The notes under the pieces: model-generated
Told to the model about the DNA's origin: nothing
What the model saw: only the letters and a program-made list of their open reading frames with translations
Databases searched by the model: none
Shown here: piece by piece, positions 38,474 to 62,127 of the stretch
Layout of the letters: every line of letters starts with the position of its first letter
How positions within the stretch are numbered: position 1 is the stretch's first letter
Made by a program: the position numbers and the translations under genes
Source of the DNA: Pacificibacter sp.
GTDB lineage: Bacteria > Pseudomonadota > Alphaproteobacteria > Rhodobacterales > Rhodobacteraceae
Reading direction: 5' to 3'
NCBI RefSeq assembly: GCF_039769035.1
Contig: NZ_JBDMZG010000023.1
Coordinates: 4,429-68,428 of the forward strand
Length of the DNA stretch: 64,000 bases

Positions 38474-40144
38474 TTACCCAAGAATACCGGGCAGATTTAG
38501 ATCATGCGCGCGGGCACATGCTTTGGCGTCATCATAGCCCGCATCGGCGTGACGCATGACACCTGTGGCCGGATCGTTCCACAAGACACGTTCAATGCGG
38601 CGATCCGCATCCTCAGAGCCGTCACAGCAAATCACCATGCCGGAGTGTTGCGAAAAGCCTATGCCAACGCCGCCGCCGTGGTGTAATGACACCCAAGTCG
38701 CGCCTGAAGCTGTGTTTAGAAGCGCATTCAAAAGCGGCCAGTCCGATACAGCATCTGAGCCGTCCATCATCGCCTCTGTTTCGCGATTGGGGGAGGCGAC
38801 CGATCCTGAGTCGAGGTGGTCGCGGCCAATCACGATCGGCGCGCTGAGCTCGCCAGTGCGAACCATTTCGTTGAAGGCAAGACCTAGCTTGTGGCGAATG
38901 CCCAAACCAACCCAGCAGATGCGTGCAGGCAAGCCTTGGAATTCGATACGTTCGCGAGCCATATCGAGCCAAGTGTGCAGATGCTTGTCCTCGGAAAGAA
39001 TTTCCTTAACTTTGGCGTCTGTTTTGTAGATGTCCTCTGGATCACCAGACAGCGCCGCCCAGCGGAACGGACCGATGCCGCGGCAAAAGAGCGGACGGAT
39101 ATATGCTGGAACGAAGCCTGGGAAATCAAAGGCGTTTTCAAGACCTTCTTCAAGCGCAACCTGGCGAATGTTGTTGCCGTAATCAAACGTAGGAATGCCC
39201 AGTTTCTGGAAATCGATCATCGCTGCTACATGCGCTTTCATCGAGGCGCGGGCGGCAGCTTCTACAGCCTTCGGATCGCTTTCGCGTTTCTCTTTCCATT
39301 GCGCCATGCTCCAACCTTGGGGCAGGTAACCGTTGATTGGGTCATGCGCAGAGGTTTGATCTGTGACCATATCTGGACGCACGCCGCGCTTTGCGATTTG
39401 CGCAAAGACATCTGCCGCATTGCCCAAAAGGCCAACAGATTTTGCTTCACCAGCGGCGGTCCATTTTTCGATCAACGCCAAAGCTTCGTCCAACGTATCG
39501 GCGCGCTCATCTACATAACGGGTGCGCAGGCGGAAATCGATGCTGTCTGGGTTACATTCAACAGCCAAGCAGCATGCGCCTGCCATAACTGCCGCCAAAG
39601 GTTGCGCGCCGCCCATGCCGCCAAGGCCGCCTGTGAGGACCCATTTGCCCGTCAGATCGCCGCCGTAATGTTGGCGACCAGCCTCGACGAAGGTTTCATA
39701 CGTCCCCTGCACGATGCCTTGGGAGCCGATGTAAATCCAAGAGCCGGCCGTCATCTGGCCGTACATGGCCAAGCCCTTTTTATCGAGCTCATTGAAGTGA
39801 TCCCAATTTGCCCAATGCGGTACGAGGTTGGAGTTAGCGATCAAAACGCGTGGGGCGTCTTTGTGGGTTTGGAACACGCCGACAGGCTTTCCAGACTGCA
39901 CCATCAACGTTTGATCTTCTTCAAGGTTTTTCAGTGCCTCAACGATGAGATCAAAATCTTTCCATGTGCGCGCAGCGCGCCCGATACCGCCGTACACCAC
40001 CAGTTCATGGGGGTTTTCGGCTACATCAGGATGGAGGTTGTTCATCAACATCCGCATCGGCGCTTCGGTCAGCCAGCTTTTGGCAGTGATGTCAGAGCCC
40101 GTCGCGGGGAAAATATCACGGGTGTTCTTGTGGGGATCGCTCAT
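38474..40144 (-). CDS. hutU: Urocanate hydratase
   Basis: [62 protein letters not shown] and [18 protein letters not shown]. Confidence 0.97.
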
Positions 40145-40941
40145 GATGTGCCTTTCGGGAAAGGGGCCAATTCGGCCAGTTTGGTCAAAATTGATTGGAG
40201 GTGAGGACGCAGCTTTGCGGCTTTTTCCTCGTCATAAGTCCAAGGGCTTGTCTCAGATTGCAGATACATGCTTTGCGCCAATTCCATTTGGATCGCGTGA
40301 AAACCTTCTGCAGGGCGGCCATAAGCGCGGGTCGTCCAGCCGCCTTTAAAGCGGCCATTGGTGACTGAGGAATAACCTTCTGCAGCGGCGCAAATGTCTT
40401 GGGTGATTTGCGCGACCTTCGGATCGCATGTGGTGCCTAGATTCGTCCCGATGTTGAAGTCGGGCAGGGTGCCTTCGAACAGAAAAGGGATGTCCGATCG
40501 GATCGAATGGCAGTCATACAGAATGACAAAACCATGTAGGCTCTTAACACGCTCAAGTTCGGCCACAAGGGCGGCGTGATAGGGCGCATGAAAAGCCAGA
40601 CGACGTGTTTCATTAGTCGCAGCATCGGGTGCCTTGTCCCAAATATCATGGCCGTCAAAGTCAGTGAGCGGCACCAGACCTGTCGTGTTTTGGCCAGGGT
40701 AGAGCGACACACCAGAGGGATCACGATTGGCGTCCACAACATAGCGGTGAAACGTTGCGCGCACAGTCGTGACGTCGGGCAAGAGGCCCTCATAGAGCGT
40801 GTGAATGTGCCAATCCGTATCATCCAATCCGCGCCCGCGGTCGTTGAGATCCGCCAAAACATCCTCTGGTACATAAGTTCCTGTGTGTGGCAGGCCCAAA
40901 ACGATCGGGCTATCACCTTGTGTGATTTCTACGGGTGTCAT
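40141..40941 (-). CDS. hutG: N-formylglutamate deformylase
   Basis: [40 protein letters not shown] and HAIQMELAQ. Confidence 0.93.
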
Positions 40942-41033
40942 GGTGTCATCTCCTGCGTGTCGCTGGCTGCTGTGGTAATGTCCTCGGATGCGATCATTGT
41001 TGCCGCCTCAGACTTAAAAGGCTGCGGGCTCAC
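40938..41033 (-). pseudogene. 31-codon ORF at the hutH position, probable in-frame deletion scar of hutH
   Basis: GTG overlaps the hutI stop (GTGA) behind GGAGG; TGA overlaps the hutG start (ATGA); translation [31 protein letters not shown]. Confidence 0.55.
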
Positions 41034-42241
41034 AATTTGCCTCCGAAAATACGCGCGTGAAGTGGGTTGAAGCCAATCCGATAAGAGAGTTCGGCTGGGT
41101 GTTTGATGTCCCAAACGGCCATGTCAGCACGCATGCCAACAGCAAGTGTGCCCGTGTCCGTTAGGCCCAAAGCACGCGCTGCGTTTTGCGTCACGCCGCG
41201 CAGGGTTTCTTCGGGTGTCATACGAAACAGAGTGCACCCCATGTTGAGGGTGAGCAGCAGCGAATTTAGGGGGGACGATCCGGGGTTGATGTCTGTCGCG
41301 AGCGCCATCGGCACCTTGTGTTGGCGCAGCGCATCGATTGGCGGCGCTTGTGTTTCGCGCAAGGTGTAGAACGCACCGGGCAGGATGACAGCAACCGTGC
41401 CCGCATCCTTCATGGCGACGACGCCGTCCTCGTCCAGATATTCGATATGGTCGGCAGACATAGCGCCATAGCGTGCAGCCAGTTTTGCGCCGCCGAGGTT
41501 GGAGAGCTGTTCAGCATGCAGCTTGACCGGTAAGCCCAGCTCCTGAGCCACATCAAACACGCGCGCGATTTGTTCAGGCTGAAAAGCGATGCCTTCGCAA
41601 AACCCGTCCACAGCGTCGACCAAGCCTTCGGCATGGGCTGCGCGTAGGGCAGGGATGCAGACATTATCGATGTACGCATCATCTCGACCGGCATATTCAG
41701 CTGGTGTTGCATGCGCGCCAAGGAAGGTCGTTTTCACACGTAAGGGGCGGTGTTTCGGGATCGCGCGGGCGACACGCAGCATGCGCAGCTCGGTCTCCAG
41801 ATCCAAGCCATAACCAGATTTCACTTCAATACATGTGACGCCTTCTGCAATCAAAACATCCACTCGGCGCAAGGCATCGCGAAGCAGGTCTTCTTCGGTT
41901 GCAGCGCGTGTGGCATTGACCGTCGATACAATCCCGCCGCCTGCGCGTGCGACCTCTTCATAGCTGGCGCCACTCAGTCGCATCTCGAACTCTGCTGCGC
42001 GGTCGCCGCCATGTACAATATGCGTATGGCAATCGATCAGCCCAGGGGTGACGAGGCGACCACCAAGGTTGGTTTCAGGCAGAGCTTTATACTGTTCAGG
42101 GATCTTGGACTGAGGTCCGATCCAATCGATAACCCCGTCCACGACTGGCACTGCTGCATCTTCGATCAGTCCGTATGGCGCGTCTGTTTCACCCATTGTC
42201 ACAAGATTCAGGTGGGAGAAGAGTCTGTTGTCTTTCGGCAT
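41030..42241 (-). CDS. hutI: Imidazolonepropionase
   Basis: [41 protein letters not shown] and [10 protein letters not shown]. Confidence 0.96.
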
Positions 42242-42268
42242 TATCAATCCGGTTTGGCTAAGAATATA

Positions 42269-42312
42269 CATTTAAGGTATGCAAAGATATGCTTTATGTC
42301 TATACATAAAGC
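42269..42312. promoter_or_regulatory. HutC operator box 1 within a duplicated 40-bp promoter block
   Basis: GCTTTATGT-CTAT-ACATAAAGC palindrome with core TATGTCTATACATA upstream of hutI. Confidence 0.8.
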
Positions 42313-42445
42313 GGGCTCCGAGTTGATTTTCTTAGACAGTCGACACTCTCTTGTCAGCCTCGGGAAATCTGCTCAGCCATAACTTTCAACTGCCACTCGA
42401 GTATCGAGCTGCTCTCGTACTTAAAAATATTCAGGTTCAATCAAG

Positions 42446-43420
42446 ATGAATTACCGCCAAGCCGTGCTCTTCATGCCAGGGGTGCTTATTTGTTCAATCG
42501 TCGCGGCCGCCTCGCGATTTTTATCAGATCACTACAGTGCTCCCACGATGTTATTTGCGCTGCTCATTGGGTTGAGTCTGCATTTCTTGGTGGATGACCA
42601 GAAAGTGGCGCCGGGGATAAGGTTCGCGGCGGCGGATTTGTTGAAATTGGGGGTGGCATTGTTGGGGTTGCGAATCACGTTGGCTGATATTGGCGATTTA
42701 GGTGTGCAAACGATTGGTCTCGTTATTGGCGGCGTAATCTTTTCCATCTCTATCGGGATTGCGATCACGTTATTGCTTGGAAAAAATATCAGGTTCGGCG
42801 TTTTGTCTGGCGGAGCTGTTGGTATCTGCGGGGCGTCTGCGGCCTTGGCCATTTCAGCAGTGTTGCCCACGTCTGACACCAGAGAACGCGATACCGCTTT
42901 TATCGTAGTTGCCGTCACAACACTCTCTACAGTAGCAATGGTTCTCTACCCGATTTTGGGAAAACGTTTGGGATTAGACGACCAGCACATTGGGATCCTT
43001 TTAGGGCTAACAATTCACGATGTGGCGCAGGTTGTCGGTGCCGGGTTTTCGGTTTCAGAAGAAACGGGCAACATCGCAACCCTCATTAAGCTGTTTCGTG
43101 TCTCCATGCTTGTCCCAGTCATAATTGTGATCTCATTCGCGTTCCGCAAGCAAAACGCGCAATGCAATCGCAGCGGTGTTCCCTGGTTCGTTCATGGCTT
43201 CGCAATCGCTATTGTGATCAACAGTCTAGGTGTTCTTCCTGAGACGATCAGGGTGTTGCTAGCGGCGGTTTCATCATGGATGTTAGTGATTGGGATTGTT
43301 GGGATCGGGATAAAAACCTCCCTAAAAAGCTTGGGCCATGTCGGGGGTGCAGCGCTGGTTATTGTCTGCCTGGAAACCCTCCTGCTTTTTGCGGTGGCGG
43401 CTGTAATCCTTGTGCTGTGA
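42446..43420 (+). CDS. YeiH / putative sulfate exporter (TauZ/SuyZ-like) membrane protein
   Basis: LKLGVALLGLRI, GAVGICGASAALA, GLTIHDVAQVVGAG, IKLFRVSML and GIGIKTSL. Confidence 0.88.
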   Translation: MNYRQAVLFMPGVLICSIVAAASRFLSDHYSAPTMLFALLIGLSLHFLVDDQKVAPGIRFAAADLLKLGVALLGLRITLADIGDLGVQTIGLVIGGVIFSISIGIAITLLLGKNIRFGVLSGGAVGICGASAALAISAVLPTSDTRERDTAFIVVAVTTLSTVAMVLYPILGKRLGLDDQHIGILLGLTIHDVAQVVGAGFSVSEETGNIATLIKLFRVSMLVPVIIVISFAFRKQNAQCNRSGVPWFVHGFAIAIVINSLGVLPETIRVLLAAVSSWMLVIGIVGIGIKTSLKSLGHVGGAALVIVCLETLLLFAVAAVILVL

Positions 43421-43626: not shown

Positions 43627-44211
43627 ATGCAAATTCTGAAATCAAATGCCTTGATTGATGTGCCATGGAAAAACGGCGGCGGGATCACGCGCAACATCGC
43701 GAAAGGTTTGCGTGAGGGCAAGATTGCTTGGACCATTAGCCGCGCTGATGTCGCCGAGGCTGGCCCTTTTTCTGATTTTGCAGGCATGATACGTGTGCTG
43801 ACTGTAGTGTCTGGCGGGACGATGGTTTTGGACACACCCAAAACGTCCCTCACGGCGGTGCTTTTTTCGCCAGTTCGCTTTGATGGGGCGCTGAAGGTGT
43901 TTTCGCGTTTGGAAGATGGCCCGATTACTGATCTGAATCTTATGTTTGATCCGAGCTTTTGTGACGGGGATGTCGTGGTCCACAAAGGCCCGTGCGATCT
44001 CAAAGCCACGTGTCCGGAGCACGGAGTGTTGGCGTTTCATGGGCTTGCCGGAGGCCCCTGCGTCGACGGAACGGCAATCAGCTCCGCGGATACGGCGTTT
44101 GTCACACAGCCCAACGCGATGCTTCAGTTGAAAGAAGGAGAGGCATTGCTTGAGCTACGCTTAAGCTATCTGGATCAAGACAATGCCATCAAGCTGTGCA
44201 TTGCAGATTGA
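43627..44211 (+). CDS. hutD: HutD-family protein
   Basis: PWKNGGGITRNI, ISRADV..GPFSDFAG..R and TDLNLM. Confidence 0.9.
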   Translation: MQILKSNALIDVPWKNGGGITRNIAKGLREGKIAWTISRADVAEAGPFSDFAGMIRVLTVVSGGTMVLDTPKTSLTAVLFSPVRFDGALKVFSRLEDGPITDLNLMFDPSFCDGDVVVHKGPCDLKATCPEHGVLAFHGLAGGPCVDGTAISSADTAFVTQPNAMLQLKEGEALLELRLSYLDQDNAIKLCIAD

Positions 44212-44353: not shown

Positions 44354-46456
44354 CTAAGTTGGATCCGCTTCCGCTGCGGTTTTAATGACCGGCTCCATGG
44401 ACGCTAAGGCCTCGGGGCTTAGGTGACATTTGACTTGATGCCCATCCGCAAGGTTCTGCACGTCTGGAACTTGGGTCTCACAGAGATTGCCTGCCACCGA
44501 CGATTTCCAACGGCACCGCGTTTGGAACGGGCAACCAGAAGGTGGGTTCATGGCGGAAGGAATGTCGCCTTCAAGGACGATTTGTTGCTTCTGGATCGTG
44601 GTGTCCGCAATCGGAACCGCCGACAACAATGCTTCGGTGTAGGGGTGGTACGGAGGCGAGAACACCTGATCAGCTGTGCCAAGCTCCACGACGTGACCGA
44701 GATACATCACCAGCACTCGATCACTGAGGTAGCGCACAATGGAAAGATCGTGAGAGATAAACAGCAACGTGGTGCGGTTCTTACGTTGAATCTCCATCAG
44801 AAGATCTGTCACTGCGGCCTGCACAGACACATCAAGGGCAGACACAGGTTCATCCGCGACGACGATCTTGGCGTCGCCGGCAAACGCACGCGCGATCCCT
44901 ACGCGTTGCTTTTGACCGCCTGAGAGCTGCCGCGGGGTGCGTTCGGCGAAAGCGCGAGGCAGTTTGACCAAATCCAGAAGTTCAAGCATACGATTGCGGC
45001 GCTCTGCATCATTGCTGCCAATCTTGAAAATTTCCAACGCGCGGATGATCTGGCGCCCAATGGTCATGGAGGGATTGAGCGTGTCGAAGGGGTTTTGAAA
45101 AACCATTTGAACACTGGAAACGGCCGTTGTGCCACGTTCGGCAATCGGCGTGTCTTGGATCTCGGTGTCGAGCAGTTGGATCTTACCATCGGTGGCTGTT
45201 TCAAGGCCCAACAGCATTTTAGCGAGCGTGGACTTGCCGCAGCCAGACTCTCCAACAATGGCGAGGGTTTCTGCTTCGTGAGCACTGAAGCTGATGTCCT
45301 CGTTGGCCTTCACAACGGCGACATCGCTTTTGTTTTTGAACATCGAGCTTGAGGCGACTTCATAGTATTTTTGAAGGTTTTGCAGATCAAGGATCTTTGC
45401 ACCGCGATCGGTTTTCTCCGTTTGTCGCGCCACTTCTGGCTCGGCCAGCCAATCGATCTCTTCATAGCGGCGGCATCGTGTCTCGTGAAGGCCGTTGCCA
45501 TCGACGGATGCCATTTCAATAGCCCCTTGGTCGCATTGGCCTTTAACAGCGTAAGAACAGCGTGGACCAAAATTACACCCTATCGGGCGTTCGTGCGGCA
45601 AGGGAAAGTTGCCGGGAATTGCCATAAGCGGACGGCTGTTTTTGTCCGCACCGGGCAGGGGGATCGAGCGGAAGAGAGCTTGCGTGTAGGGATGGCGCAT
45701 TTTGTCAAAGACGTCTTTGATTGACCCGCGCTCAATCGCTTCGCCGGAGTACATCACGCAGATGCGGTCGCAGGTTTCCAGAACCAAACCAAGGTTGTGC
45801 GAGATAAACAGGATGGATGTCCCGTATTTCTTACCAAGGTCTTTCACCAATTCAATCACCGCTGCCTCAACCGTTACATCCAGCGCAGTGGTGGGCTCAT
45901 CTAGGATGAGCAACTTGGGCTTTGACATCAATGCCATGGCAATCACGATACGTTGTTGTTGCCCGCCTGAGAGCTGGTGAGGATAGCTGTTCAAAACGCG
46001 TTTTGGGTCTGGAAGTTTGACGTCTGTGACGACCTCCAAGGCACGCGCATAAGCGTCATTCGCGCACATGTTCTCGTGCAGCATGGGCACTTCCATCAAC
46101 TGCTTCCCGATTTTCATCGCAGGGTTTAGCGAGGCCATGGGCTCTTGGTAAATCATGGCGATTTCTTTGCCGCGGATGCGGCGCAGTTCTTCTGCGGGCA
46201 TTGTTGTCAGATCTTTGCCTTTGAACTTGATCGTTCCTCCAACAATTTCACCGTTCTTGCCAAGATCGCGCATGATCCCGAGCGCGACTGTAGATTTCCC
46301 GCAGCCAGATTCACCCACAAGGCCCAGTGCTTCGCCCGGCATGATTTTCGCGGAGAAGTCCATCACGGCGGGAATTTCCATTAAGCGCGTCATGAAGCTG
46401 ATCGACAGTTTGTCGATTTCCAAGATAGGGCCGGCATAGTCTGTTTGATCGGACAT
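44354..46456 (-). CDS. Peptide/opine/nickel ABC transporter, fused double ATPase
   Basis: Two GESGCGKST Walker A motifs, two LSGGQ motifs and two C-terminal GCxFxxRC oligo-HPY domains. Confidence 0.93.
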   Translation of the reverse strand: MSDQTDYAGPILEIDKLSISFMTRLMEIPAVMDFSAKIMPGEALGLVGESGCGKSTVALGIMRDLGKNGEIVGGTIKFKGKDLTTMPAEELRRIRGKEIAMIYQEPMASLNPAMKIGKQLMEVPMLHENMCANDAYARALEVVTDVKLPDPKRVLNSYPHQLSGGQQQRIVIAMALMSKPKLLILDEPTTALDVTVEAAVIELVKDLGKKYGTSILFISHNLGLVLETCDRICVMYSGEAIERGSIKDVFDKMRHPYTQALFRSIPLPGADKNSRPLMAIPGNFPLPHERPIGCNFGPRCSYAVKGQCDQGAIEMASVDGNGLHETRCRRYEEIDWLAEPEVARQTEKTDRGAKILDLQNLQKYYEVASSSMFKNKSDVAVVKANEDISFSAHEAETLAIVGESGCGKSTLAKMLLGLETATDGKIQLLDTEIQDTPIAERGTTAVSSVQMVFQNPFDTLNPSMTIGRQIIRALEIFKIGSNDAERRNRMLELLDLVKLPRAFAERTPRQLSGGQKQRVGIARAFAGDAKIVVADEPVSALDVSVQAAVTDLLMEIQRKNRTTLLFISHDLSIVRYLSDRVLVMYLGHVVELGTADQVFSPPYHPYTEALLSAVPIADTTIQKQQIVLEGDIPSAMNPPSGCPFQTRCRWKSSVAGNLCETQVPDVQNLADGHQVKCHLSPEALASMEPVIKTAAEADPT

Positions 46457-46508
46457 ATTTTCTTCTTTCGTTCGCTGGATCTGGCGGTTTGACACCGCCG
46501 GATGTGAC

Positions 46509-47699
46509 TTAGTCGCGCAGGCTTTCTTCGCGCAGACCGTCGGCAAGAAGGTTGAGGCCAAGCACGAGGCTCAAAAGAGCGATGGCTGGCGGTAGGGCGG
46601 GATGAAGGTAGATTGACAAGAGTTTGCGGCCCTCATTGATCGTTGAGCCCCAATCCGGACTCTCGGGCGGAAGGCCCAAACCGAAGAAGCCAAGTGTCCC
46701 CAGAAGGATGGTCGTGTAGCCAATGCGCAGGCAGAAATCCACGATGAGCGGGCCGCGCACGTTGGGCAAAATTTCCCACAACATGATGTACCAATGCGAT
46801 TCACCGCGTGTTTGCGCCGCGGCAACGTAGTCGCGGGTTTTAACATCGAGGGTAAGCCCCCGCACGATCCGAAAGACGGTTGGCGCATTTACGAAAACCA
46901 CGGCAACAAAAACAACAAGAATGCCGCCAGGAACGTCGAAGCCGTCTAGCAAAGCTGGCACGAGATCTATGGCTCCGCCTTTTTCGGAAATCAAAGACAG
47001 GTAAATCCAGCCCATGCTCCCGAGCACCACGATCAAAAGCGGAGTGCGCACGCTGGGCCGAGTGTGAAAGCGCGAGTTCAGCAAAACGCCCACAAAAATC
47101 AGCGGGAATATGAAGAGGACGGCTGCCATATAATTGGGAATGCCAGATTCTACGATCTCTGGTGTGACCAAGAGGTAGAACAGGAGAATAACAGGAAAGG
47201 CTAAGATCAGGTTGGCTGCAAAAGAGAGGGCTGTGTCCAAATACCCGCCAAAATAGCCCGCAGGCAATCCCAGTGTGATGCCAACCATAAAGGCAAAAAG
47301 AGTTGAGAGAGGTGCGATTTGCACGACAACGAAAGCGCCTTTGACCATTCGGCTGAACACATCACGCGCCAAGTTGTCACCACCAAGAAGATAGTAGCCA
47401 GAATATTTGCTCGAGTCTGGCACCGGTGTTCCCGGAGCTTTGTTTTTGAGGCCCGAAATTTGGGTCAGTGGATCATGCGTGATGATCATATCCATCGCGC
47501 CAAACAGGCCGGTGAAGATCCAAAACATAACGAGGAAAAATCCTACCATGCCAACCTTGCTGTCAAAGAGCTTACCGTAGAGGCCAAGCTTGCGTTTGTA
47601 GGTGATGGACAGCACAAACACAGCGGCCAAAGCAATCCAAACCGGCATAAACTGCAATAAGATGCGCACGATGATTGCGCCCCAGCTCAGAGTTTCCAT
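46509..47699 (-). CDS. Peptide/opine ABC permease (DppC-like)
   Basis: LGGDNLARDVFSR, DYVAAAQTRGE, ILPNVRGP and LGFFGLG..PDWG. Confidence 0.9.
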   Translation of the reverse strand: METLSWGAIIVRILLQFMPVWIALAAVFVLSITYKRKLGLYGKLFDSKVGMVGFFLVMFWIFTGLFGAMDMIITHDPLTQISGLKNKAPGTPVPDSSKYSGYYLLGGDNLARDVFSRMVKGAFVVVQIAPLSTLFAFMVGITLGLPAGYFGGYLDTALSFAANLILAFPVILLFYLLVTPEIVESGIPNYMAAVLFIFPLIFVGVLLNSRFHTRPSVRTPLLIVVLGSMGWIYLSLISEKGGAIDLVPALLDGFDVPGGILVVFVAVVFVNAPTVFRIVRGLTLDVKTRDYVAAAQTRGESHWYIMLWEILPNVRGPLIVDFCLRIGYTTILLGTLGFFGLGLPPESPDWGSTINEGRKLLSIYLHPALPPAIALLSLVLGLNLLADGLREESLRD

Positions 47700-47713
47700 G
47701 AGTCAATTCCCTC

Positions 47714-48760: not shown

Positions 48761-48848
48761 TTTTGTCCTCAGTTGGCTGGCCACTACAGGCGGCAAAAGG
48801 CTTGGCGCTGAATGTGGCACGCCTCACGCGGATCGGATGTAGGTGGAA

Positions 48849-48874
48849 AAGCAGCTGACCTAAGTCAGCTGCTT
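48849..48874 (-). terminator. Stem-loop after the SBP gene
   Basis: AAGCAGCTGAC-CTAA-GTCAGCTGCTT perfect 11-bp stem. Confidence 0.65.
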
Positions 48875-48884
48875 GTATTTTGAA

Positions 48885-50811: not shown

Positions 50812-50831
50812 CATTATGTCTGCACATAATG
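50812..50831. promoter_or_regulatory. HutC operator box 2, in the SBP / lyase-1 divergent region
   Basis: CATTATGT-CTGC-ACATAATG; core TATGTCTGCACATA is 12/14 identical to boxes 1 and 3. Confidence 0.7.
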
Positions 50832-53578: not shown

Positions 53579-54589
53579 ATGTCGCGTATGGAAATTGAAT
53601 ATTTGGGCAAACCGGAAATCGATGCACTGGCTCTGACGAACGATGAAATTTTAAATGCCATCGAGCAGGGCTTGATTGCAGCTGGGCAGGGCAAAACCGT
53701 TATCGAGCCGCGCATGCACCTGACCCCTGACCCGAGCTTCGATGGGCATTTCAACGTTCTGCGCGGATATGTTGAGCCGCTCAACTATGCTGGCGTTAAA
53801 GTCGTGGGTGATTTTGTCGACAACTACAAACATGGGTTACCCAGTGAGTTGGCCCTGCTGAACCTGTTCTGTCCACGCACTGGTGCGCCCAAAGCCGTGA
53901 TCGATGCCGCAGGCATTACGGATATGCGGACGGGAGCATTGACTGCGCTCGGGGCGAAATGGCTTGGTCCAAAAAATCCAAAAGTATTGGGGCACCTTGG
54001 GGCCCGAGGGACGTCCTATTGGAATGTGCGTCTTCTCGATCACCTTTTTGACTTTGAAGAAATTCGTGTGCATTCGCGCCGCCCAGAAAGCCGCAATGCT
54101 TTTGCAGAGAAGCTGACACAGGACCTCGGCAAGAAAATCACTGTAACGGAAGATTGGGAAAGCTGCCTTAAAAGCGCTGACATTATGATAGAAGCAACGC
54201 GTCTGAATGAACCAACGCCAAAGTTCGACCGGTCATGGGTGAAAAAAGGAAGCTTGGTCATACCGTATGGCACGATGAGCACGCTGCCGTTGGATTTCGT
54301 GGAGGGCATAGACAAATTCGTCATGGATGATTTGGGGCAAATGCGTGCGGGGCACCTCGGAGCACTGCGGCCACATATTGATGCGGGTCTGATCTCAGAA
54401 GAGAACTTTTACGCAGAGATCGGTGAGATAGCAGCCGGATTGAAACCTGGACGTGAACATGAGGATGAGACCATCTTGTTTTGGCACCGGGGTATGTCGA
54501 CCGGCGATATCGCTTTGGGAGCAGCGATTTTGGAAAAAGCACGCGCACGCGGCAATGTGCAAAATCTGCTTTACCGAGAAGACCAATGA
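53579..54589 (+). CDS. Ornithine cyclodeaminase / mu-crystallin family protein
   Basis: GVKVVGDF, TDMRTGA, GARG Rossmann motif, ADIMIEAT, EIGEIAAG..GRE and GDIALG. Confidence 0.88.
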   Translation: MSRMEIEYLGKPEIDALALTNDEILNAIEQGLIAAGQGKTVIEPRMHLTPDPSFDGHFNVLRGYVEPLNYAGVKVVGDFVDNYKHGLPSELALLNLFCPRTGAPKAVIDAAGITDMRTGALTALGAKWLGPKNPKVLGHLGARGTSYWNVRLLDHLFDFEEIRVHSRRPESRNAFAEKLTQDLGKKITVTEDWESCLKSADIMIEATRLNEPTPKFDRSWVKKGSLVIPYGTMSTLPLDFVEGIDKFVMDDLGQMRAGHLGALRPHIDAGLISEENFYAEIGEIAAGLKPGREHEDETILFWHRGMSTGDIALGAAILEKARARGNVQNLLYREDQ

Positions 54590-56115
54590 AAGCGCTGAGA
54601 TTAGACGGTTCAAACTTGACTGTTGGCGTCTTGGCGCGAGCGGCTTGTGGGGAATACCAAGTCGAGCTTTCAGACACGGGCTTAGAACGCATGCGCCGCG
54701 CGCGAGCACTTGTGGACCGCGTGATCGAACAGCGCGTTCCTGTCTACGGTGTGACAACTGGCCTTGGGGCCAGATCATCCGAAGCGCTCGATGCGCACAC
54801 CTTGCAGGAATTCTCAATCCAAACTCTGCGTGGGCGGGCGCAAGCGATGGGGTCAAAGGCGCCCCGCGAAATTGTGCGCGCCGCCATGATCGTCAGGGCG
54901 AACACAATGCTGACGGGATATAGTGGCGCTCGGCCGCAAGTCGCGCTGCATCTAGCGGCCTGTCTGAATGCCAATTTGACCCCTGTCGTTGGTGAGGTCG
55001 GCTCGATTGGCGCCGCAGATCTTGTGCAGAACGCAACGCTTGGTCTTGCTTTGATTGGCGAAGGAGAGATGCAAGATGCGTCAGGTGAAATCGGGCCGAG
55101 CGCTGATAAAATGCGTGCATACGGCATCACCCCACTGACGTTGGGGCCCAAAGACGGCTTGGCTTTGGCCAATCATACAGGCTTTTCAAGTGGAGCTGCT
55201 GCTCTGGCGTGTCATGCCGCTGAGGTTGCATTTGAAGTGGCGCAAACGGCGGCCTCTTTGTCATTAGAAGCCTTTCGCGCCAATTTAACCCCCTTCAAAC
55301 ACAGCGTGCTTGCGGCGAAACCGTTGCCCGGGCAAAGCTTGGTGGCCGCAGGGCTGAGAGCGCGCTTAGAGGGGAGTTTGCTGTGGGATGAAAAACATGC
55401 ACGCCGTCTTCAAGATCCGCTGTCCTATCGCAATATCTGCCAAATTCATGGGGCGACCGCCAGTGCCTTAGAGCAGGCTCGATTGGTCGTTGAGATTGAA
55501 GCGAACGGCTCAAGTGACAATCCGATTGCATTGATCGAAAGCGATGAGATTATCTCGTGCGGCAACTACTATACGGCTGAATTGGGTCAGGGGATTGAGG
55601 GGATAAGCCGCGCAATCGCCTCGCAGGCCATGGCTCAATTGTCGCGGATGTCCAAACTGCTTCATCCTGACTTTAGCGGGCTGCCCGCATTTTTGGCGCA
55701 GGAGAACAGTGGATCAAATGGGTTCGCTCCCGTTATGAAGACCGCCGAGGCGTGGTTGGCCAAACTCGTACATGCTGCGCAACCGGTGCCAATTTGGCCG
55801 AGCATCAATGCCAATGGGGTAGAAGATTGTCTGCCCAATTCACCACAGTCTATTTCTGCGTTGTCTACTGCGGTTGAGTGCATGCGCCATATGAATGCTC
55901 TGGAGCTTTTGATTGCTGCGCAAGCGATCGAGCTGCGTGCGTGTCAGGTTGAGATGGCGCCCTTTGTTCAAGGCACTTTCGCCATGGTGCGCACGCATGC
56001 AAAGGCTTTGACGATAGACCGCTCTTTTGGCTGCGATGTGGATGGGCTGGTGCAGGTCATGCGGGCTGGTGCAAGCTCCGCACTCTTTCCGGTGTGTGCT
56101 ATGTCGCGTAAATGA
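54586..56115 (+). CDS. HAL/PAL-superfamily lyase lacking the MIO motif (lyase 2)
   Basis: VYGVTTGLG, GYSGAR, LGPKDGLALAN, QDPLSYRNICQIHGA, SDNP and VED; GSIGAADL at 55000-55023; ATGA-coupled to the OCD gene. Confidence 0.85.
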   Translation: MKALRLDGSNLTVGVLARAACGEYQVELSDTGLERMRRARALVDRVIEQRVPVYGVTTGLGARSSEALDAHTLQEFSIQTLRGRAQAMGSKAPREIVRAAMIVRANTMLTGYSGARPQVALHLAACLNANLTPVVGEVGSIGAADLVQNATLGLALIGEGEMQDASGEIGPSADKMRAYGITPLTLGPKDGLALANHTGFSSGAAALACHAAEVAFEVAQTAASLSLEAFRANLTPFKHSVLAAKPLPGQSLVAAGLRARLEGSLLWDEKHARRLQDPLSYRNICQIHGATASALEQARLVVEIEANGSSDNPIALIESDEIISCGNYYTAELGQGIEGISRAIASQAMAQLSRMSKLLHPDFSGLPAFLAQENSGSNGFAPVMKTAEAWLAKLVHAAQPVPIWPSINANGVEDCLPNSPQSISALSTAVECMRHMNALELLIAAQAIELRACQVEMAPFVQGTFAMVRTHAKALTIDRSFGCDVDGLVQVMRAGASSALFPVCAMSRK

Positions 56116-56239
56116 GTGAATGCGATAGATAGTCGGTGATGTGTTTGGAAATCCCGCGAATGCGACCAACTCACGACAGGTAAGTACGTCTCATCTATGC
56201 GAAATACTGTTCAGTTAAACTTCGCAGAATGGGACATCT

Positions 56240-57232
56240 ATGAAACTCGAACAGAACACTGCAGCGCTCGCTGAGACGGGACGCATCTATTCGGAGAAAC
56301 ATGACAATTTAGCTGTTGGTATCGAGTGGCCGACGCTGGGTATCGCAGCGGTTTGTATTGTTCTTATGCCATTGATCACCTACTTTTCCGACAGCTTTCC
56401 CTTGGTGCTATCCGTGCTGGCGCTCGGGATTGTCCTCGCCCTTCAATCTTCTTTGCAGCATGAAGTTTTGCATGGTCACCCCTTTTCGAGCGAAGCCTTA
56501 AATGAGCTTTTGGTTTTTCTGCCTGCCGGCCTATTTGTGCCCTATCGCCGTTTTAAGGACACGCATATCCAGCATCACTATGATCCAAATTTAACTGACC
56601 CTTATGATGATCCAGAAAGCAATTTCTTGGACCCAAAAAAATGGGATCAAATGGGCCCGCTGCACCGACTGATCTATCGAATGAACAACACAATGTTTGG
56701 GCGGATGGTGCTAGGGCCTGCACTTGGTATGATCTGTTTCTACACGTCAGATTTACGCGAAATATCACGGGGAAATACACGAGTTTTGACGGCTTATGCG
56801 CTGCATTTCATTGGTTTCATTCCGTTAGCTTTCTGGCTCACTACCCTTAGTACAATGCCGTTTTGGGCCTATTTTTGTGCGGCCTATTTCGGAATGTCGT
56901 TGCTCAAAATACGAACTTTTCTAGAGCACCAAGCCCACGAGAAAGTGCCAGGGCGAACAGTTGTCATTGAAGATCGTGGGCCTTTGTCACTCCTGTTTTT
57001 GAACAATAATTTCCATTCGGTGCATCATGCCCACCCGAAGGTTGTTTGGTACCGGCTGCCGCAACTCTATGCACTGCGCCGAGAAGAGTATTTGCGCATG
57101 AACCAAGGGTATCTTTTTGAGAGCTATGGTGACGTGTTCCGACGTTTCCTCTTTAAAGCTAAAGATCCGGTCCCCCATCCACTGCGTGCCAGCCCTTGTG
57201 ACTTGGATTCAAAACAGGATTTACCAAACTGA
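56240..57232 (+). CDS. Membrane diiron fatty-acid-desaturase-superfamily protein
   Basis: His boxes QHEVLH, HIQHH and NFHSVHH; hydrophobic segments. Confidence 0.85.
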   Translation: MKLEQNTAALAETGRIYSEKHDNLAVGIEWPTLGIAAVCIVLMPLITYFSDSFPLVLSVLALGIVLALQSSLQHEVLHGHPFSSEALNELLVFLPAGLFVPYRRFKDTHIQHHYDPNLTDPYDDPESNFLDPKKWDQMGPLHRLIYRMNNTMFGRMVLGPALGMICFYTSDLREISRGNTRVLTAYALHFIGFIPLAFWLTTLSTMPFWAYFCAAYFGMSLLKIRTFLEHQAHEKVPGRTVVIEDRGPLSLLFLNNNFHSVHHAHPKVVWYRLPQLYALRREEYLRMNQGYLFESYGDVFRRFLFKAKDPVPHPLRASPCDLDSKQDLPN

Positions 57233-58047
57233 TGAGAATGACACCTAAACACGCTAGCTTGCCGATGTATGATTTCGCAGGGGTAGCGGAGGCGACGGAT
57301 CTACTTTGGTCGCACTTGAAGCGCGGACCTCTTTCTGAGTTTTACGATGCCCCTGATCGACTGACGCGAGGTATGGATCTTTGGGACCTGTGGCAGCGTG
57401 AGAACTTGTTTCTGGCGCAGACTTGCGGGTTTCCATTTGTACATAAATTACGAGGGCAGGTCGGGCTTGTGGGAACGCCGGACTACGGCGTCGTGCCAGA
57501 AAAACCCGGTTGGTACTATAGCGTGATCCTATGCCGCCAAGACGATCCACGCAGGACTTTGGCGGATTTTGAGGGGGCAAAATTTGCCCTCAATGAAACC
57601 GGTAGCCAGTCCGGATGCCATGCCTTGATGCACACGCTAAATACGCAATTCGGTACCGAAAAATTGCTGGGAGGCAGCTTGTTGACGGGCGCGCATGTGC
57701 ACTCTGCCCTCGCGGTTTTAGAAGGCGAAGCCGACATTGCGGCCGTGGATATTGTGACATGGTTGCATGTTCAGCGCGATCATCCCGAAGTGTCTGGATT
57801 AAGGGTTCTCTTGCAAACGGAGCCAACACCTGGATTACCTTATATTACGGCCAATGCACAGGATGCAGCGCAACTGGGAGAATGCATTTCTGAAGGCATT
57901 CAATCCTTACCTGCGCAGACTGCGAAAGCTCTCTTTCTGAAGGGGGTCTGGCGCTCTAGCGAGGCGGATTATGATATTATTGAGGCCCGAGCCCATGCCG
58001 CAAAAGCCGTTTTTGAAAGCTATTTTCCAAACGGTCTTGCTCATTAG
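57232..58047 (+). CDS. PhnD-like PBP2-fold protein without an obvious signal peptide
   Basis: ASLPMYD, LAQTCGFP, YYSV, ALNETGSQSG, TGAHVHSALAVLEGEADIAAVD and TPGLPYIT; TGATG-coupled to the desaturase. Confidence 0.75.
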   Translation: MRMTPKHASLPMYDFAGVAEATDLLWSHLKRGPLSEFYDAPDRLTRGMDLWDLWQRENLFLAQTCGFPFVHKLRGQVGLVGTPDYGVVPEKPGWYYSVILCRQDDPRRTLADFEGAKFALNETGSQSGCHALMHTLNTQFGTEKLLGGSLLTGAHVHSALAVLEGEADIAAVDIVTWLHVQRDHPEVSGLRVLLQTEPTPGLPYITANAQDAAQLGECISEGIQSLPAQTAKALFLKGVWRSSEADYDIIEARAHAAKAVFESYFPNGLAH

Positions 58048-59115: not shown

Positions 59116-59121
59116 CGCCTT

Positions 59122-60498
59122 CTATGAGGCAGCTTTAGCCGCGGTGGGTGTTTTTAACATGCCCCATGCTGCATAAGCGCTAATCAAGCATAGGATACAG
59201 CCAACCCAAAGCGCCAAAATGAAGCCACTATGAGCGCCCTCCAGTGGTTGGCCGACATCGGTGAACGTCACCCCCAACAGCGATCCGGCCAATAGCGCAC
59301 CAACACGTGCGACTGCTGTGTTGACGCCAGAAGCGATGCCAGACATCCGTGTTTCGACACTGTTTAAGGCGGATGTTGTTAAGGGGGCGACGACAATGCC
59401 CATGCCGATTGCCAGCAGGCATTCTCCGGGTAAAATCGCAGCCCAAGGATGTATTGGATGGAGTGGCAGCTGTGCGAGCGAAGCAAACCCAGTACCGACA
59501 ATGAGCGCACCTGAGGTGAGAACTGCGCGTTCTCCATATCTCATGGCTAAGCGCGTTCCGCCTTTGGAAATTACCCCAATGATCACGGAAAAGGGCATCA
59601 AAATTGCGCCTGCACCAGTCCCACTAAAGCCGTAAATCGTAATCAGCACATAGGGGAAAGAAATCAGGAAGCCACCTATCGCCATGTATAGGAAAAAAGT
59701 GATGACGGTAATTCCTAGAAAATCGCCCTCACGAAACAGTCTTATGGGCAGCATCGCGTAATCGGCTTTTTGGTGCTCAACTTTGATCAGCAGGCCACCC
59801 AAGACGAGTGCTCCGATGAACTGCGCCAGTGATTTTAGCAGGTGGGGCGAAGCGCTTGTTGCATCTGTGAGCCACCAAATGAGCGTGGCGAGAAAAAGTG
59901 AGGCAAGCAGTGTGCCTTGCCAGTCGAGCGATGATGCCTGCTTTTCATCGTCTTGTTTTGAGGCGATGTAAACGTGTCCCAAAATGAGGGTGATCAACCC
60001 TAATGGGACAAAGAGGCCCAAACACACACGCCACCCAAATGCATCAATGATCCAGCCGGCAAGAAGCGGGGCGGCGGCCCCCAAAATCGCTGTGGCTGCA
60101 GACCATGTGCCGATGGCACGGGCGCGGGCATCGCCTGTGTGGGTAATGGCAAGGATAGCCAGACTGGAGGGCACAATAAGAGCAGATCCAACGCCTTGTA
60201 CAAACCGCGCTATGAGCAGGGTTGTAAAATGAGGGGCAACAGCTGATGTGAGGCTGCCGGCTGTGAAGAGCCACAGCCCCAAGCTGAAGACTCGTTTGTG
60301 CCCAAAGTGATCCCCCAAGGCACCGCCTGTTAAAATGAGAGCGCCAAGCGGCAACATAAAGCTCGTGACAATCCACTGTAGTTGCGTTGGAGAGAGACCA
60401 AATTCTTGCTGTATGCTCGGTAGGGCGAGATTGGCAACGACGACGATTATGAGCGTCAGTGCTGATGCAAAAATTGAGGTGATCAAGATGGGGTTCAT
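59122..60498 (-). CDS. MFS efflux transporter, DHA2-like
   Basis: ALPSIQQEF, LQWIVTSF, GALGDHFGHKRVF, ARFVQGVGSAL and ASGVNTAVARVG. Confidence 0.88.
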   Translation of the reverse strand: MNPILITSIFASALTLIIVVVANLALPSIQQEFGLSPTQLQWIVTSFMLPLGALILTGGALGDHFGHKRVFSLGLWLFTAGSLTSAVAPHFTTLLIARFVQGVGSALIVPSSLAILAITHTGDARARAIGTWSAATAILGAAAPLLAGWIIDAFGWRVCLGLFVPLGLITLILGHVYIASKQDDEKQASSLDWQGTLLASLFLATLIWWLTDATSASPHLLKSLAQFIGALVLGGLLIKVEHQKADYAMLPIRLFREGDFLGITVITFFLYMAIGGFLISFPYVLITIYGFSGTGAGAILMPFSVIIGVISKGGTRLAMRYGERAVLTSGALIVGTGFASLAQLPLHPIHPWAAILPGECLLAIGMGIVVAPLTTSALNSVETRMSGIASGVNTAVARVGALLAGSLLGVTFTDVGQPLEGAHSGFILALWVGCILCLISAYAAWGMLKTPTAAKAAS

Positions 60499-60713
60499 GC
60501 GCCGTGTGAAAGTCAATGAGTGCTCCCTAATTGCTACGCAGCAATTCGTTGAGTTGAAATATAGGTCTAGAAAAGAGCTGCGCTATTAAACGACGTGCCG
60601 CACAGTTTCAAAACAGGTGAATGTCCGACTTCATGTTGTGACTTCACATGGTTGAGTGCGCAGTAGCACAGATTTTCGCGCTGATTTAAAACTTCACTAT
60701 GGCAAAAAAATTC

Positions 60714-60753
60714 CATTTAAGGTATGTGCTGATATGAGTTATGTCTATACATA
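60714..60753. promoter_or_regulatory. HutC operator box 3 / second copy of the 40-bp block
   Basis: CATTTAAGGTATGtgctGATATGagTTATGTCTATACATA; 34/40 identical to 42269-42308; upstream of hutF. Confidence 0.8.
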
Positions 60754-60768
60754 TAAACAGAGGTTGAA

Positions 60769-62127
60769 ATGATTTTTGCAAAGCAAGCACTGCTTTCAAG
60801 TGGATGGGCGTCAGGTGTTCGCCTCGATGTGACGCAGGGGACGATCACAAAAATTGAAACGCAGCAGCAGGCTCACGCAGGTGATGTGACAGTCGACACC
60901 CTCTTGCCTGCCTTGGCAAATCTACACAGTCACAGCTTTCAGCGGGCTATGGCAGGAATGACCGAATACCGCATGGCTGGTAAGGACAGTTTCTGGACGT
61001 GGCGCGATTTGATGTACAAGTTCACCTCAACGATATCAGCTGAACAAGTCGAGGCAATTGCAGCCTTTGTGTTCTTGGAAATGCAAGAGGCGGGCTATGC
61101 CAGCGTTGGTGAGTTTCACTACCTTCACCACCAACCGGGCGGCATGCCTTATGATGATCTTGGCGAACTGTCGTCCCGCATCGCATCCGCGGCAGATGTG
61201 ACCGGCATTGGCCTAACACATCTCCCAGTTCTCTATACATATGGCGGGGCTGGGCAGGTGCCGCTCAAAGCAGGACAGGCGCGTTTCGGAAACTCTGCCG
61301 ATCAGTTTAATGCATTGGTCGATAAAGCAAAAAACGCGGTGTCTTCCCTCGCAGATGATTGCCGCGTCGGCATCGCACCGCACTCATTGCGCGCGATATC
61401 GCCCGATGACCTCAAAGCCGTCTTGGCCGCTCGCTCCAACGGGCCAATCCATATTCATATTGCCGAACAACCCAAAGAAGTCGCTGATATTCAAGCTTGG
61501 CTCGGCGCACGTCCCGTTGAGTGGTTGCTGGCAAACACGGACGCCAATGAAGATTGGTGCCTGATCCATGCCACCCATATGACAGAAGTCGAAACAAAGA
61601 ACATGGCCCAGTCTGGCGTGGTTGCTGGCCTGTGCCCTGTCACCGAGGCCAATCTGGGAGATGGCCCGTTCAATGGACAGGCATATGTGAACCATGGTGG
61701 AGCCTTTGGTGTCGGATCTGACTCCAATGTTCTGATCTCATTGACGGAAGAGCTGCGTACTTTGGAATATTCGCAACGTCTGCGTGATGTTGCGCGAAAC
61801 ATCATGGTCAAAGGTGAGGGCTCCGTTGGGGCGAAACTCTATTGTGGTGCAGCAAAGGGCGGCGCGCAGGCGCTGAGCCGTCAAGCGGGCGACATTTCCG
61901 TTGGAAACCTCGCAGATCTTGTAGCCATCGACAGCACGGCGCCGGCACTCTGCGCGCTACGCCAAGATCAAATCCTCGATGGTCTTGTGTTCGCAGCGAA
62001 GGATACAGTCGTGACAGATGTTTGGTCCGCTGGCAGACACGCGGTGCAAACTGGCCGCCATGTGAAACGGGATGAGATCACTGCAGCCTACACCTCAGCA
62101 ATGCACGCTTTGGTGGCCTCGCTCTGA
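60769..62127 (+). CDS. hutF: Formimidoylglutamate deiminase
   Basis: NLHSHSFQRAMAGMTE, SFWTWR, GEFHYLHH, HIHIAEQPKEV, CPVTEANLGDG and GSDSNV. Confidence 0.96.
   Translation: MIFAKQALLSSGWASGVRLDVTQGTITKIETQQQAHAGDVTVDTLLPALANLHSHSFQRAMAGMTEYRMAGKDSFWTWRDLMYKFTSTISAEQVEAIAAFVFLEMQEAGYASVGEFHYLHHQPGGMPYDDLGELSSRIASAADVTGIGLTHLPVLYTYGGAGQVPLKAGQARFGNSADQFNALVDKAKNAVSSLADDCRVGIAPHSLRAISPDDLKAVLAARSNGPIHIHIAEQPKEVADIQAWLGARPVEWLLANTDANEDWCLIHATHMTEVETKNMAQSGVVAGLCPVTEANLGDGPFNGQAYVNHGGAFGVGSDSNVLISLTEELRTLEYSQRLRDVARNIMVKGEGSVGAKLYCGAAKGGAQALSRQAGDISVGNLADLVAIDSTAPALCALRQDQILDGLVFAAKDTVVTDVWSAGRHAVQTGRHVKRDEITAAYTSAMHALVASL

Follow-up and report, generated by a model that had tools for sequence, protein, structure and literature searches.

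The hut locus described here lies in 64,000 nucleotides of Pacificibacter sp. (NCBI RefSeq assembly GCF_039769035.1, contig NZ_JBDMZG010000023.1, positions 4,429 to 68,428 of the forward strand); this whole 64-kb stretch is called the window, and positions are counted from its first letter. The pathway from urocanate to glutamate (HutU, HutI, HutF and HutG) has been kept complete in this marine roseobacter lineage, under HutC, a repressor that senses urocanate, and HutH, the histidine ammonia-lyase (HAL), has been lost through a clean in-frame deletion. An insert of 18.4 kb splits hutI from hutF, and its genes include an importer, an ornithine cyclodeaminase (OCD)/mu-crystallin family enzyme and two HAL-family lyases, HAL1 and HAL2, that lack the Ala-Ser-Gly triad of the methylidene-imidazolone (MIO) cofactor. 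On balance, it appears probable that the insert serves this HutH-less lineage as a new entry into the Hut pathway, in which HAL1 would act on an imported hercynine-type betaine and the OCD-HAL2 pair would form a second module. A preliminary description of this DNA had proposed that HutH was removed, that MIO-less lyases and an importer were recruited, and that N-alkylated histidines feed into the urocanate pathway. Within the reach of sequence evidence, this proposal is supported by the deletion shared with a sister strain, the lack of another hutH, a HutC operator on the importer and HAL1, the recurrent hutU-HAL1 adjacency, and the Hut pathway in each of 13 other family genomes with the lyases.

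Deletion of hutH and rewiring of the hut locus

Gene content was determined from a listing of open reading frames (ORFs) and from Pfam and NCBIfam scans over the window, which bear out the intact hutU, hutI, hutF, hutG, hutC and hutD of the preliminary description, together with its peptide/opine-type ATP-binding cassette (ABC) importer, OCD/mu-crystallin enzyme and YeiH exporter. The hut genes and their remnants are as follows.

37689-38399, forward strand: hutC, GntR/UTRA repressor of the hut regulon (Pfam GntR and UTRA)
38474-40144, reverse strand: hutU, urocanase (three urocanase domains, all matched)
40141-40941, reverse strand: hutG, N-formylglutamate amidohydrolase (PF05013, E 4e-67)
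40938-41033, reverse strand: hutH scar, a 96-nt, 31-codon in-frame remnant aligned to the 3' end of relatives' hutH
41030-42271, reverse strand: hutI, imidazolonepropionase (amidohydrolase domains)
42335-42388, forward strand: hutF 5' coding remnant (81% identity to 60888-60941 within hutF)
43627-44211, forward strand: hutD (PF05962)
60769-62127, forward strand: hutF, formiminoglutamate deiminase (HutF_N and Amidohydro_1)

The retained genes closely resemble those of other family members. In particular, hutU is 92-94% identical to hutU from canonical hut operons (Shimia, Sulfitobacter-type Rhodobacteraceae), hutI and hutF are 79-88% and 74-85% identical to those of relatives, and hutC has 80% identity to the hutC of a Sulfitobacter relative, in an equivalent position. 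Across sixteen relatives' loci, with minor gaps, the ancestral order is hutD convergent with hutF, a single short hutF/hutI intergenic region, then hutI, hutH, hutG and hutU on the opposite strand to hutF, and finally a convergent hutC.

In the window, hutI and hutG are spaced by only 88 nt. The scar noted earlier at the hutH position is real, as this gap encodes an in-frame remnant of the HutH C-terminus: its GTG start overlaps the hutI stop (GTGA) in just the way known from relatives' hutH, its stop and the hutG ATG overlap (ATGA), and the last 23 residues of the 31-codon remnant align with the HutH C-terminus of relatives (ending in LEKAAALIASGDIVAAAGIDMPELSS before the stop). The gene has shrunk from 513 to 31 codons by an in-frame deletion of ~482 codons. 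A search for another hutH with an Ala-Ser-Gly triad found none in the 98.7%-complete genome (3.43 Mb, 223 contigs), where HAL1 and HAL2 alone match the hutH model TIGR01225; their scores (~317 and 206-211.9 bits) are under the cut-off of 539, which places neither of them in HutH. In another genome of the family (G221:C1:26457-28593), hutU stands beside a bare 108-aa C-terminal HutH fragment, which may be an independent hutH truncation, and a second, intact hut copy is found on another contig.

The same locus is present, gene for gene and with the 88-nt hutI-hutG gap, in a sister strain represented by a Logan contig (SRR28780247; L096/L204). The two strains have diverged to a dS of 0.26-0.57, so that the deletion and the insert are older than the split of both lineages. 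Comparing them, the dN/dS ratios are 0.047 for hutU, 0.074 for HAL1, 0.131 for HAL2, 0.037 for the OCD gene, 0.053 for the binding protein of the importer, and 0.05-0.07 for its permeases and ATPase; every part of the locus is under purifying selection. The hutH remnant of the sister strain has a stop at codon 7, so that conservation does not extend to the full 31-codon ORF. Among 32 other species of the genus, no close homologue of HAL1 or HAL2 was found.

The insert contains the YeiH exporter, hutD, the ABC importer, HAL1, HAL2, the OCD enzyme, and a module of desaturase-like, PhnD-like and XRE-type genes. A duplicated block that comprises the start of hutI, the operator and the 5' end of hutF is found at both insert ends (42255-42388 and 60700-60941, ~80% identity); its segment 42255-42308 is 80% identical to 60700-60753, and the left copy lacks 108 nt, including the hutF start. 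Moreover, hutD has been relocated and inverted relative to the ancestral convergent hutD/hutF pair, and a 60-nt inverted remnant pair (44148-44207 and 62095-62154) indicates that it moved off its convergent overlap with hutF. As to mobility, a 25-nt inverted repeat (37384-37408 and 62448-62472, 92% complementary) brackets the entire 25-kb hut-plus-insert locus, with a recombinase zinc-ribbon fragment to the left (35570-36535) and an IS3-type transposase ORF with a helix-turn-helix to the right (62500-62844); in the sister strain, an rve integrase fragment (L204, 20396-20623) adjoins hutC. The entire rewired locus may have been mobile as one unit.

Control by HutC appears to extend into the insert. 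In Pseudomonas, HutC mediates the induction of hut genes by histidine and urocanate (PMC8034625). The hutF/hutI operator is strongly conserved among relatives (consensus TTATGTATAGACATAA), and a matrix made from 44 of their sites was scanned over the window and over 20 shuffles of it. The three HutC-type boxes reported earlier all score above the shuffles, the best of which reaches 15.9, and the fourth-best match in the window has a score of 11.5.

42292-42311, no strand: HutC operator 1, CTTTATGTCTATACATAAAG, between hutI and yeiH, equal to the relatives' hutF/hutI consensus; score 29.7
60737-60756, no strand: HutC operator 2, AGTTATGTCTATACATATAA, before hutF in the right copy of the duplicated block; score 25.5
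50812-50831, no strand: HutC operator 3, CATTATGTCTGCACATAATG, between the divergently oriented binding-protein gene and HAL1; score 19.6

Operator 3 is a perfect 8+8 palindrome, CATTATGT-CTGC-ACATAATG, and a promoter scan places it over the -10 element of a predicted sigma-70-like promoter facing HAL1. Its core is kept in the sister strain (L096, score 19.4), though the intergenic region is 76% identical there. On the strength of these sites, the importer and HAL1 are probably members of the HutC regulon. Operator 1 is now followed by the YeiH gene, which is not present at relatives' hut loci. A different candidate for the third box, found with the generic HutC motif TGTANNTACA at 50476-50485, was rejected in favour of 50812-50831, because its score with the lineage matrix is 3.7 and it overlaps the likely start of the binding-protein gene. 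That site is a perfect TGTAGATACA palindrome over the probable ATG (ATGTATCTACAA) and is also found in L096; it may be a chance occurrence or a weak auxiliary site.

HAL1, HAL2 and their genomic neighbours

Ergothionase, a kind of enzyme known since 2013-2019, removes trimethylamine from ergothioneine without MIO. Published MIO-less HAL homologues cleave trimethylamine from ergothioneine, hercynine and N(pi)-methyl-hercynine, and, as their authors state, all MIO-deficient lyases need the trimethylammonium group (bioRxiv 10.1101/2025.08.13.670108; 10.64898/2026.04.22.720169). The two lyases of the window stand next to the following genes.

44354-50531, reverse strand: Opp/Dpp-type ABC importer (SBP_bac_5 protein, two permeases and a fused double ATPase; Pfam)
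51100-52569, forward strand: HAL1 (PF00221, E 2e-87)
52559-53473, reverse strand: GcvA-type LysR regulator, divergent from OCD-HAL2 (Pfam, NCBIfam)
53582-54589, forward strand: OCD/mu-crystallin family NAD(P)-enzyme (PF02423, E 2e-47)
54586-56115, forward strand: HAL2 (PF00221, E 2e-115)

Both lyases were aligned with the ergothionase of T. denticola (Td_ETL) and with relatives' HutH, and conservation was checked in 35 members of each family. As the preliminary description had stated, the Ala-Ser-Gly triad is missing from the MIO loop of both: the loop (GSVSAS-DL in HAL1, GSIGAA-DL in HAL2, SSIGEG-DI in Td_ETL) is one residue shorter than the GSVGASGDL of HutH, and this holds in all 35 + 35 family members, with GSVGAS-DL as the sequence of the HAL1 family. 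HAL1 does contain an 'ASG', in DASGSV, which is placed four residues upstream of the MIO position and does not represent the triad. Further, Tyr280 of HAL is replaced by Leu in HAL1, HAL2 and ergothionase (QDPLSxR vs QDPYCIR), and all three keep the equivalents of the catalytic Tyr, Gln277, Arg283, Asn313 and Glu414. The Tyr of (V/A)YG, QDPLSxR and DNP, which comprise the catalytic Tyr and the carboxylate-binding Gln, Arg and Asn, are invariant throughout the HAL1 and HAL2 families. HAL1 also has the imidazole-binding residues His90 (HAL His83) and Glu405 (HAL Glu414) in 35 of 35 members; HAL2 has Lys385, the equivalent of the thiolate-binding Lys384 of ergothionase, likewise in 35 of 35.

Neither lyase has a signal peptide. 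In a PDB sequence search, ergothionase (6s7j) ranks first for HAL1 and second for HAL2, and it is the top fold match of both AlphaFold2 models (pLDDT 90.7 and 91.5; TM 0.87-0.93). In a maximum-likelihood tree, where long-branch joins are flagged, HAL1, HAL2, HutH and Td_ETL form four long, fully supported, separate branches; judged from this tree, HAL1 and HAL2 appear to be distinct clades and not close kin of any characterised enzyme. HAL1 is most likely a cytoplasmic hercynine-type trimethylammonia-lyase, and HAL2 is a predicted second cytoplasmic MIO-less lyase, ergothionase-like in character. The two had earlier been treated as one kind, which is correct in that both are MIO-less and incorrect in that they differ in control and in active site: a HutC box is found for HAL1 and the importer only, the OCD gene and HAL2 have a LysR of their own, and HAL2 carries an Arg in place of the imidazole-binding His.

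The genomic distribution of both families ties them to the Hut pathway. A pattern-based scan of a species-genome collection returned 80 HAL1 loci, of which 19, from several phyla, have the HAL1 homologue no more than 86 nt downstream of hutU and in the same orientation. These lineages include Nisaea, Taklimakanibacter, Litoreibacter, Pseudoruegeria and Acidimicrobiales, and a true hutH was found in the same operon wherever checked; for example, the nearest sampled relative of HAL1 (P0126, 67% identity) is placed after hutI-hutH-hutU. Some HAL1 homologues adjoin Opp-type importers. The HAL2 family was found in 11 of 401 genera of the bacterial family, and 9 of its 10 loci there have an OCD gene (58-88% identity) next to the HAL2 homologue, usually with a divergent LysR gene, which is conserved in L097, L192, L193 and L194. 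In the window, the OCD gene is translationally coupled to HAL2 by an ATGA overlap. In another genus (L195), the hut locus is complete and has OCD-HAL2 immediately after hutF-hutC, behind a HutC box. Two Rhizobiales loci (L117 and L120, ~750-1950) have an OCD homologue of 66-67% identity beside hutG, in hut operons that end in hutU-HAL1, so that the OCD enzyme associates with hut loci even without HAL2.

Overall, hutU and a true hutH are both present in each of the 13 other family genomes in which HAL1 or HAL2 was found. With hutH present in 76 of the family's 151 genera, 13 of 13 would arise by chance with a probability of ~1e-4, which implies that both lyases require the Hut pathway or at the least accompany it. 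The same count bears on an expected co-occurrence of hutH loss with these lyases, which proves not to be general, as 13 of 13 other carriers keep hutH. Elsewhere, the lyases are add-ons to HutH and not replacements; the loss of hutH is peculiar to this lineage.

The remaining genes between hutI and hutF are the following.

42446-43420, forward strand: YeiH-family membrane protein of a putative sulfate/sulfite exporter family (PF03601, E 2e-62)
56240-57232, forward strand: FA_desaturase-like membrane di-iron enzyme, overlapping the PhnD-like gene (Pfam)
57232-58047, forward strand: PhnD-like, PhnD-fold protein without a signal (Pfam)
Ending at 59115, forward strand: XRE-type regulator of 298 aa (helix-turn-helix seen in the sequence)
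59122-60516, reverse strand: DHA2-type major facilitator superfamily transporter, divergent from hutF (PF07690; TIGR00711 under cut-off)

Parts of the desaturase-like/PhnD-like/XRE module recur beside HAL1 or HAL2 homologues (L104, L105, L140, L141, L170, L194 and L192). A membrane di-iron gene (FA_desaturase, or FA_hydroxylase in L192), a gene for a PhnD-fold protein without a signal, or both, are found in unrelated genomes, and in L141 a desaturase gene and an XRE regulator flank a hut operon carrying HAL1. A PDB search with the PhnD-like protein gave distant relatives only. The di-iron enzyme and the PhnD-fold protein may constitute a small-molecule oxygenase with a binding-protein partner. 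In Cochlodiniinecator piscidefendens (L194, 9745-16188), HAL2-OCD-LysR is followed by an orphan SBP_bac_5 gene (48% identity to that of the window), which no permease genes adjoin, and by an FA_desaturase-like gene; the HAL1 homologue of this genome is on another contig, beside mobile-element genes.

Outside the hut locus, in the upstream region 24442-35516, an operon encodes a DAO-type oxidase, hydantoinase/oxoprolinase A and B, a short-chain dehydrogenase/reductase and an acyl-CoA synthetase, and looks unrelated; a rhodanese, an IclR regulator, a molybdopterin oxidoreductase and a SulP sulfate permease are encoded near it. Its hydantoinase A/B genes (24955-32985) were considered for ergothioneine breakdown and dropped, since they are outside the hut locus and nothing connects the two.

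Proposed route and alternative explanations

In the proposed route, a binding protein with a twin-arginine (Tat) signal (SRREFL; likely start at M67 of the long ORF) and the Opp-type ABC importer would take up an N-alpha-trimethylated histidine, most likely hercynine, from which the cytoplasmic, cofactor-less HAL1 would eliminate trimethylamine to give trans-urocanate. Urocanate is predicted to lift HutC repression at the three operators, serving hutI-hutG-hutU with yeiH-hutD, the importer with HAL1, and hutF, and the system would thus be self-inducing, with HAL1 supplying its inducer. The carbon and nitrogen of the imidazole-acrylate would end as glutamate. A search of the genome found no EgtD; the organism therefore does not make hercynine or ergothioneine, and the substrate must be imported. 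Trimethylamine would probably be released, because the genome has no clear match to a trimethylamine monooxygenase, only a weak 64-bit FMO-like match. The OCD-HAL2 pair, under its own LysR, might convert a different histidine betaine, perhaps one whose ring bears an anionic or sulfur substituent, into a Hut-pathway intermediate; the elimination would fall to HAL2 and a redox step to the NAD(P)-dependent OCD enzyme, and the YeiH-family exporter could conceivably handle released sulfur.

A more specific form of this second module is tentative, and we consider it unlikely though worth stating. HAL2 would cleave a ring-substituted betaine (ergothioneine, its sulfonate or sulfinate, or a 5-thio analogue), with Arg84 and Lys385 binding the anionic sulfur group; the OCD enzyme would use NAD(P)H to remove the sulfur reductively, giving urocanate, and the sulfur would leave through the HutC-controlled YeiH exporter. 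If so, HAL2 together with HAL1 could allow a HutH-less bacterium to live on the whole ergothioneine/hercynine pool, and roseobacters would be a marine source of trimethylamine from these compounds.

Several observations count against hercynine-type substrates and a Hut-linked role. At the position of ergothionase Lys384, HAL1 has His376 (35 of 35), and neither characterised enzyme has His there (Lys in one, Asn in the other). In HAL2, Arg84 replaces the imidazole-binding His (HAL His83) in 35 of 35 members, with Glu413 kept. Both clades are very deep and have no characterised member, so that function is carried over large distances. The operator and promoter calls are consensus matches only, and within the window no HutC box precedes OCD-HAL2, which has its own divergent LysR. 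An Opp/Dpp-type importer is not the usual carrier of betaines, and the role of a YeiH-family exporter is unexplained if the substrate is the sulfur-free hercynine. Moreover, many HAL1 homologues are in non-hut, LysR-controlled clusters with oxygenases and an M24 hydrolase. In Lentibacter algarum (L140, 5773-12804) and Kiloniella (L099), for example, a LysR gene stands opposite a HalD-like 2-oxoglutarate oxygenase, an M24/creatinase-like hydrolase, a PhnD-like protein, the HAL1 homologue and a Rieske oxygenase, which suggests that in some bacteria the HAL1 substrate is made from a precursor by oxygenase and hydrolase steps.

Some of these features would be accommodated if ergothioneine were the main substrate. 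One or both lyases would then be ergothionases giving thiourocanate, from which sulfur would be removed, for example by the OCD-type reductase or an oxidative step, to leave urocanate, and exported by the YeiH-family protein. Such a route would fit the thiolate-binding Lys of HAL2 (35 of 35), ergothionase as the top fold match of both lyases, the position of a putative sulfate exporter behind HutC operator 1, and the tight coupling of OCD to HAL2 in 9 of 10 loci, with the pair inside a hut operon in one genus. Against it stands the urocanase content of the genome: a profile search found one PF01175 match, the canonical hutU with its 92-94% identity to ordinary HutU, and hence no thiourocanate hydratase. 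Further, HAL2 has Arg where ergothionase has His, HAL1 has His and not Lys at position 384, desulfurisation of thiourocanate is known for no OCD-family enzyme, and the YeiH gene product is under the TIGR00698 cut-off (118.6 bits). An ergothioneine route in this form is accordingly judged rather improbable.

It is also improbable that the Hut remnant merely scavenges external urocanate while an insert at a recombination-prone spot degrades unrelated compounds (non-histidine betaines, peptides or opines), its lyases not feeding urocanate. The mobile-element remnants and 25-nt inverted repeats that flank the locus, the many HAL1 and HAL2 homologues outside hut loci, the missing imidazole-binding His of HAL2, and an importer type typical for peptides could all be explained in this way. 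However, unrelated degradation would not account for the conserved HutC operator on the importer/HAL1 promoter region, the hutU-HAL1 adjacency in 19 of 80 loci, the Hut pathway in 13 of 13 other carriers (compared with ~50% in the family), or the fact that HAL1 retains every residue for binding imidazole and carboxylate.

A third alternative concerns the binding protein and the OCD enzyme, in which HAL2 (or HAL1) splits an N-(carboxyalkyl)histidine such as histopine into urocanate and an amino acid, the OCD enzyme oxidises the amino acid, and the Opp-type importer carries the opine. In a PDB search, the nearest structures to the OCD enzyme are archaeal alanine dehydrogenase (E 3e-38) and Pyr2C reductase, both distant, and it is far under the cut-offs of all NCBIfam equivalogs (best, archaeal alanine dehydrogenase, 162 vs 409 bits). 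The kinship with alanine dehydrogenases, the translational coupling of OCD and HAL2, and the presence of the opine binders AgaA and AccA among SBP_bac_5 proteins would suit an opine. The published MIO-less lyases, however, require a trimethylammonium leaving group, and a protonated secondary amine leaves no more readily than ammonia, whose elimination in this family depends on MIO. Histopine, a compound of crown galls, is not known to occur in seawater. The matches of the binding protein to opine and metallophore binders are weak: a PDB search shows weak similarity to AgaA, NikA and DppA as distant relatives, and NCBIfam matches across the importer are all far under their cut-offs (for the binding protein, 61 vs 800 bits for CntA and 90 vs 393 bits for NikA). 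The opine and opine-metallophore substrates of the preliminary description thus find no support, given the CntA and NikA scores and the trimethylammonium requirement, and opine cleavage is very improbable. Finally, that HAL1 or HAL2 still deaminates free histidine without MIO, as a replaced first enzyme of the ordinary pathway, would agree with the full set of histidine-binding residues in HAL1 and deserves almost no credence, because the Shewanella MIO-less enzyme is without histidine ammonia-lyase activity, the MIO loop is shortened and Tyr280 is Leu, and elsewhere the lyases always stand alongside a true HutH (13 other family genomes).

If entry through HAL1 is the correct explanation, two widespread clades labelled 'histidine/aromatic amino acid ammonia-lyase' are not histidases, and genome-based predictions of histidine use are wrong for their carriers; this organism would be predicted to degrade histidine and yet probably cannot. 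It would also establish a catabolic, aerobic and cytoplasmic route from hercynine-type betaines into the Hut pathway, of which only periplasmic respiratory versions have so far been described, and, in the sea, ergothioneine-family compounds would become a further source of trimethylamine, a volatile relevant to climate. As a case of pathway evolution, the locus is unusually clean, with its first enzyme removed in frame, its operator duplicated, an importer and a lyase newly boxed, and the arrangement maintained in two diverged strains. The OCD-lyase pair is a conserved and uncharacterised enzyme couple.

Comparison with known systems

The closest reference for the locus as a whole is the canonical alphaproteobacterial hut locus of the Sulfitobacter/Shimia type, whose genes are 74-94% identical and whose operator sequence and gene order are the same as here. 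In contrast to it, the window has hutH deleted, the single hutF/hutI operator region doubled around the 18.4-kb insert, hutD moved and a third operator added. In Pseudomonas fluorescens SBW25, hutH1 is a second hutH homologue, belongs to a hut operon under HutC control and is dispensable for growth on histidine (PMC8034625). Its genomic logic, set alongside by context only, is the same as that of hutU-HAL1 in the 19 of 80 loci; Pseudomonas retains a true HutH (HutH2), whereas here HutH is deleted.

Ergothionase (T. denticola, PDB 6s7j/6s7q; SO_3057 of S. oneidensis) has the shorter MIO loop and the Tyr280-to-Leu change in common with HAL1 and HAL2. It shares no more than 25-26% identity with them, and all belong to separate, deep clades. 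The equivalent of its Lys384 is kept by HAL2, while HAL1 has His there; at the His83 position, HAL2 carries Arg. With no thiourocanate hydratase in the genome, the ergothioneine pathway known so far, which has five steps (ergothionase, thiourocanate hydratase, desulfhydrase, hydantoinase and carbamoylase), is absent here.

Among the Shewanella trimethylammonia-lyases, Swoo_3913 of Shewanella woodyi splits hercynine into urocanate and trimethylamine, shows no activity with histidine, and carries Asn at position 384 (bioRxiv 10.1101/2025.08.13.670108); SO_3299 cleaves N(pi)-methyl-hercynine and has Gln at position 384 (bioRxiv 10.64898/2026.04.22.720169). The lyases of both preprints are periplasmic and coupled to respiratory flavocytochromes (bioRxiv 10.1101/2025.08.13.670108; 10.64898/2026.04.22.720169). 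By its published description, Swoo_3913 resembles HAL1 in having the HAL fold without Ala-Ser-Gly, the catalytic Tyr, the Gln/Arg/Asn set, and the imidazole-binding His and Glu; at the specificity position, it has Asn according to the paper, and HAL1 has His. Swoo_3913 is periplasmic, works with a urocanate reductase in anaerobic respiration and lacks a regulator next to it, whereas HAL1 is cytoplasmic by prediction, is paired with an ABC importer, is HutC-boxed and is predicted to feed the catabolic Hut pathway. Hercynine-cleaving chemistry is therefore not new, hercynine lyases having been known since the 2025 preprint, and the literature search found no paper on a cytoplasmic hut-linked hercynine lyase or an OCD-coupled lyase. 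What is new here is the predicted cytoplasmic, HutC-wired version, its complete substitution for HutH, the conserved OCD-lyase couple, and the recurrent link to di-iron, PhnD-like and oxygenase genes.

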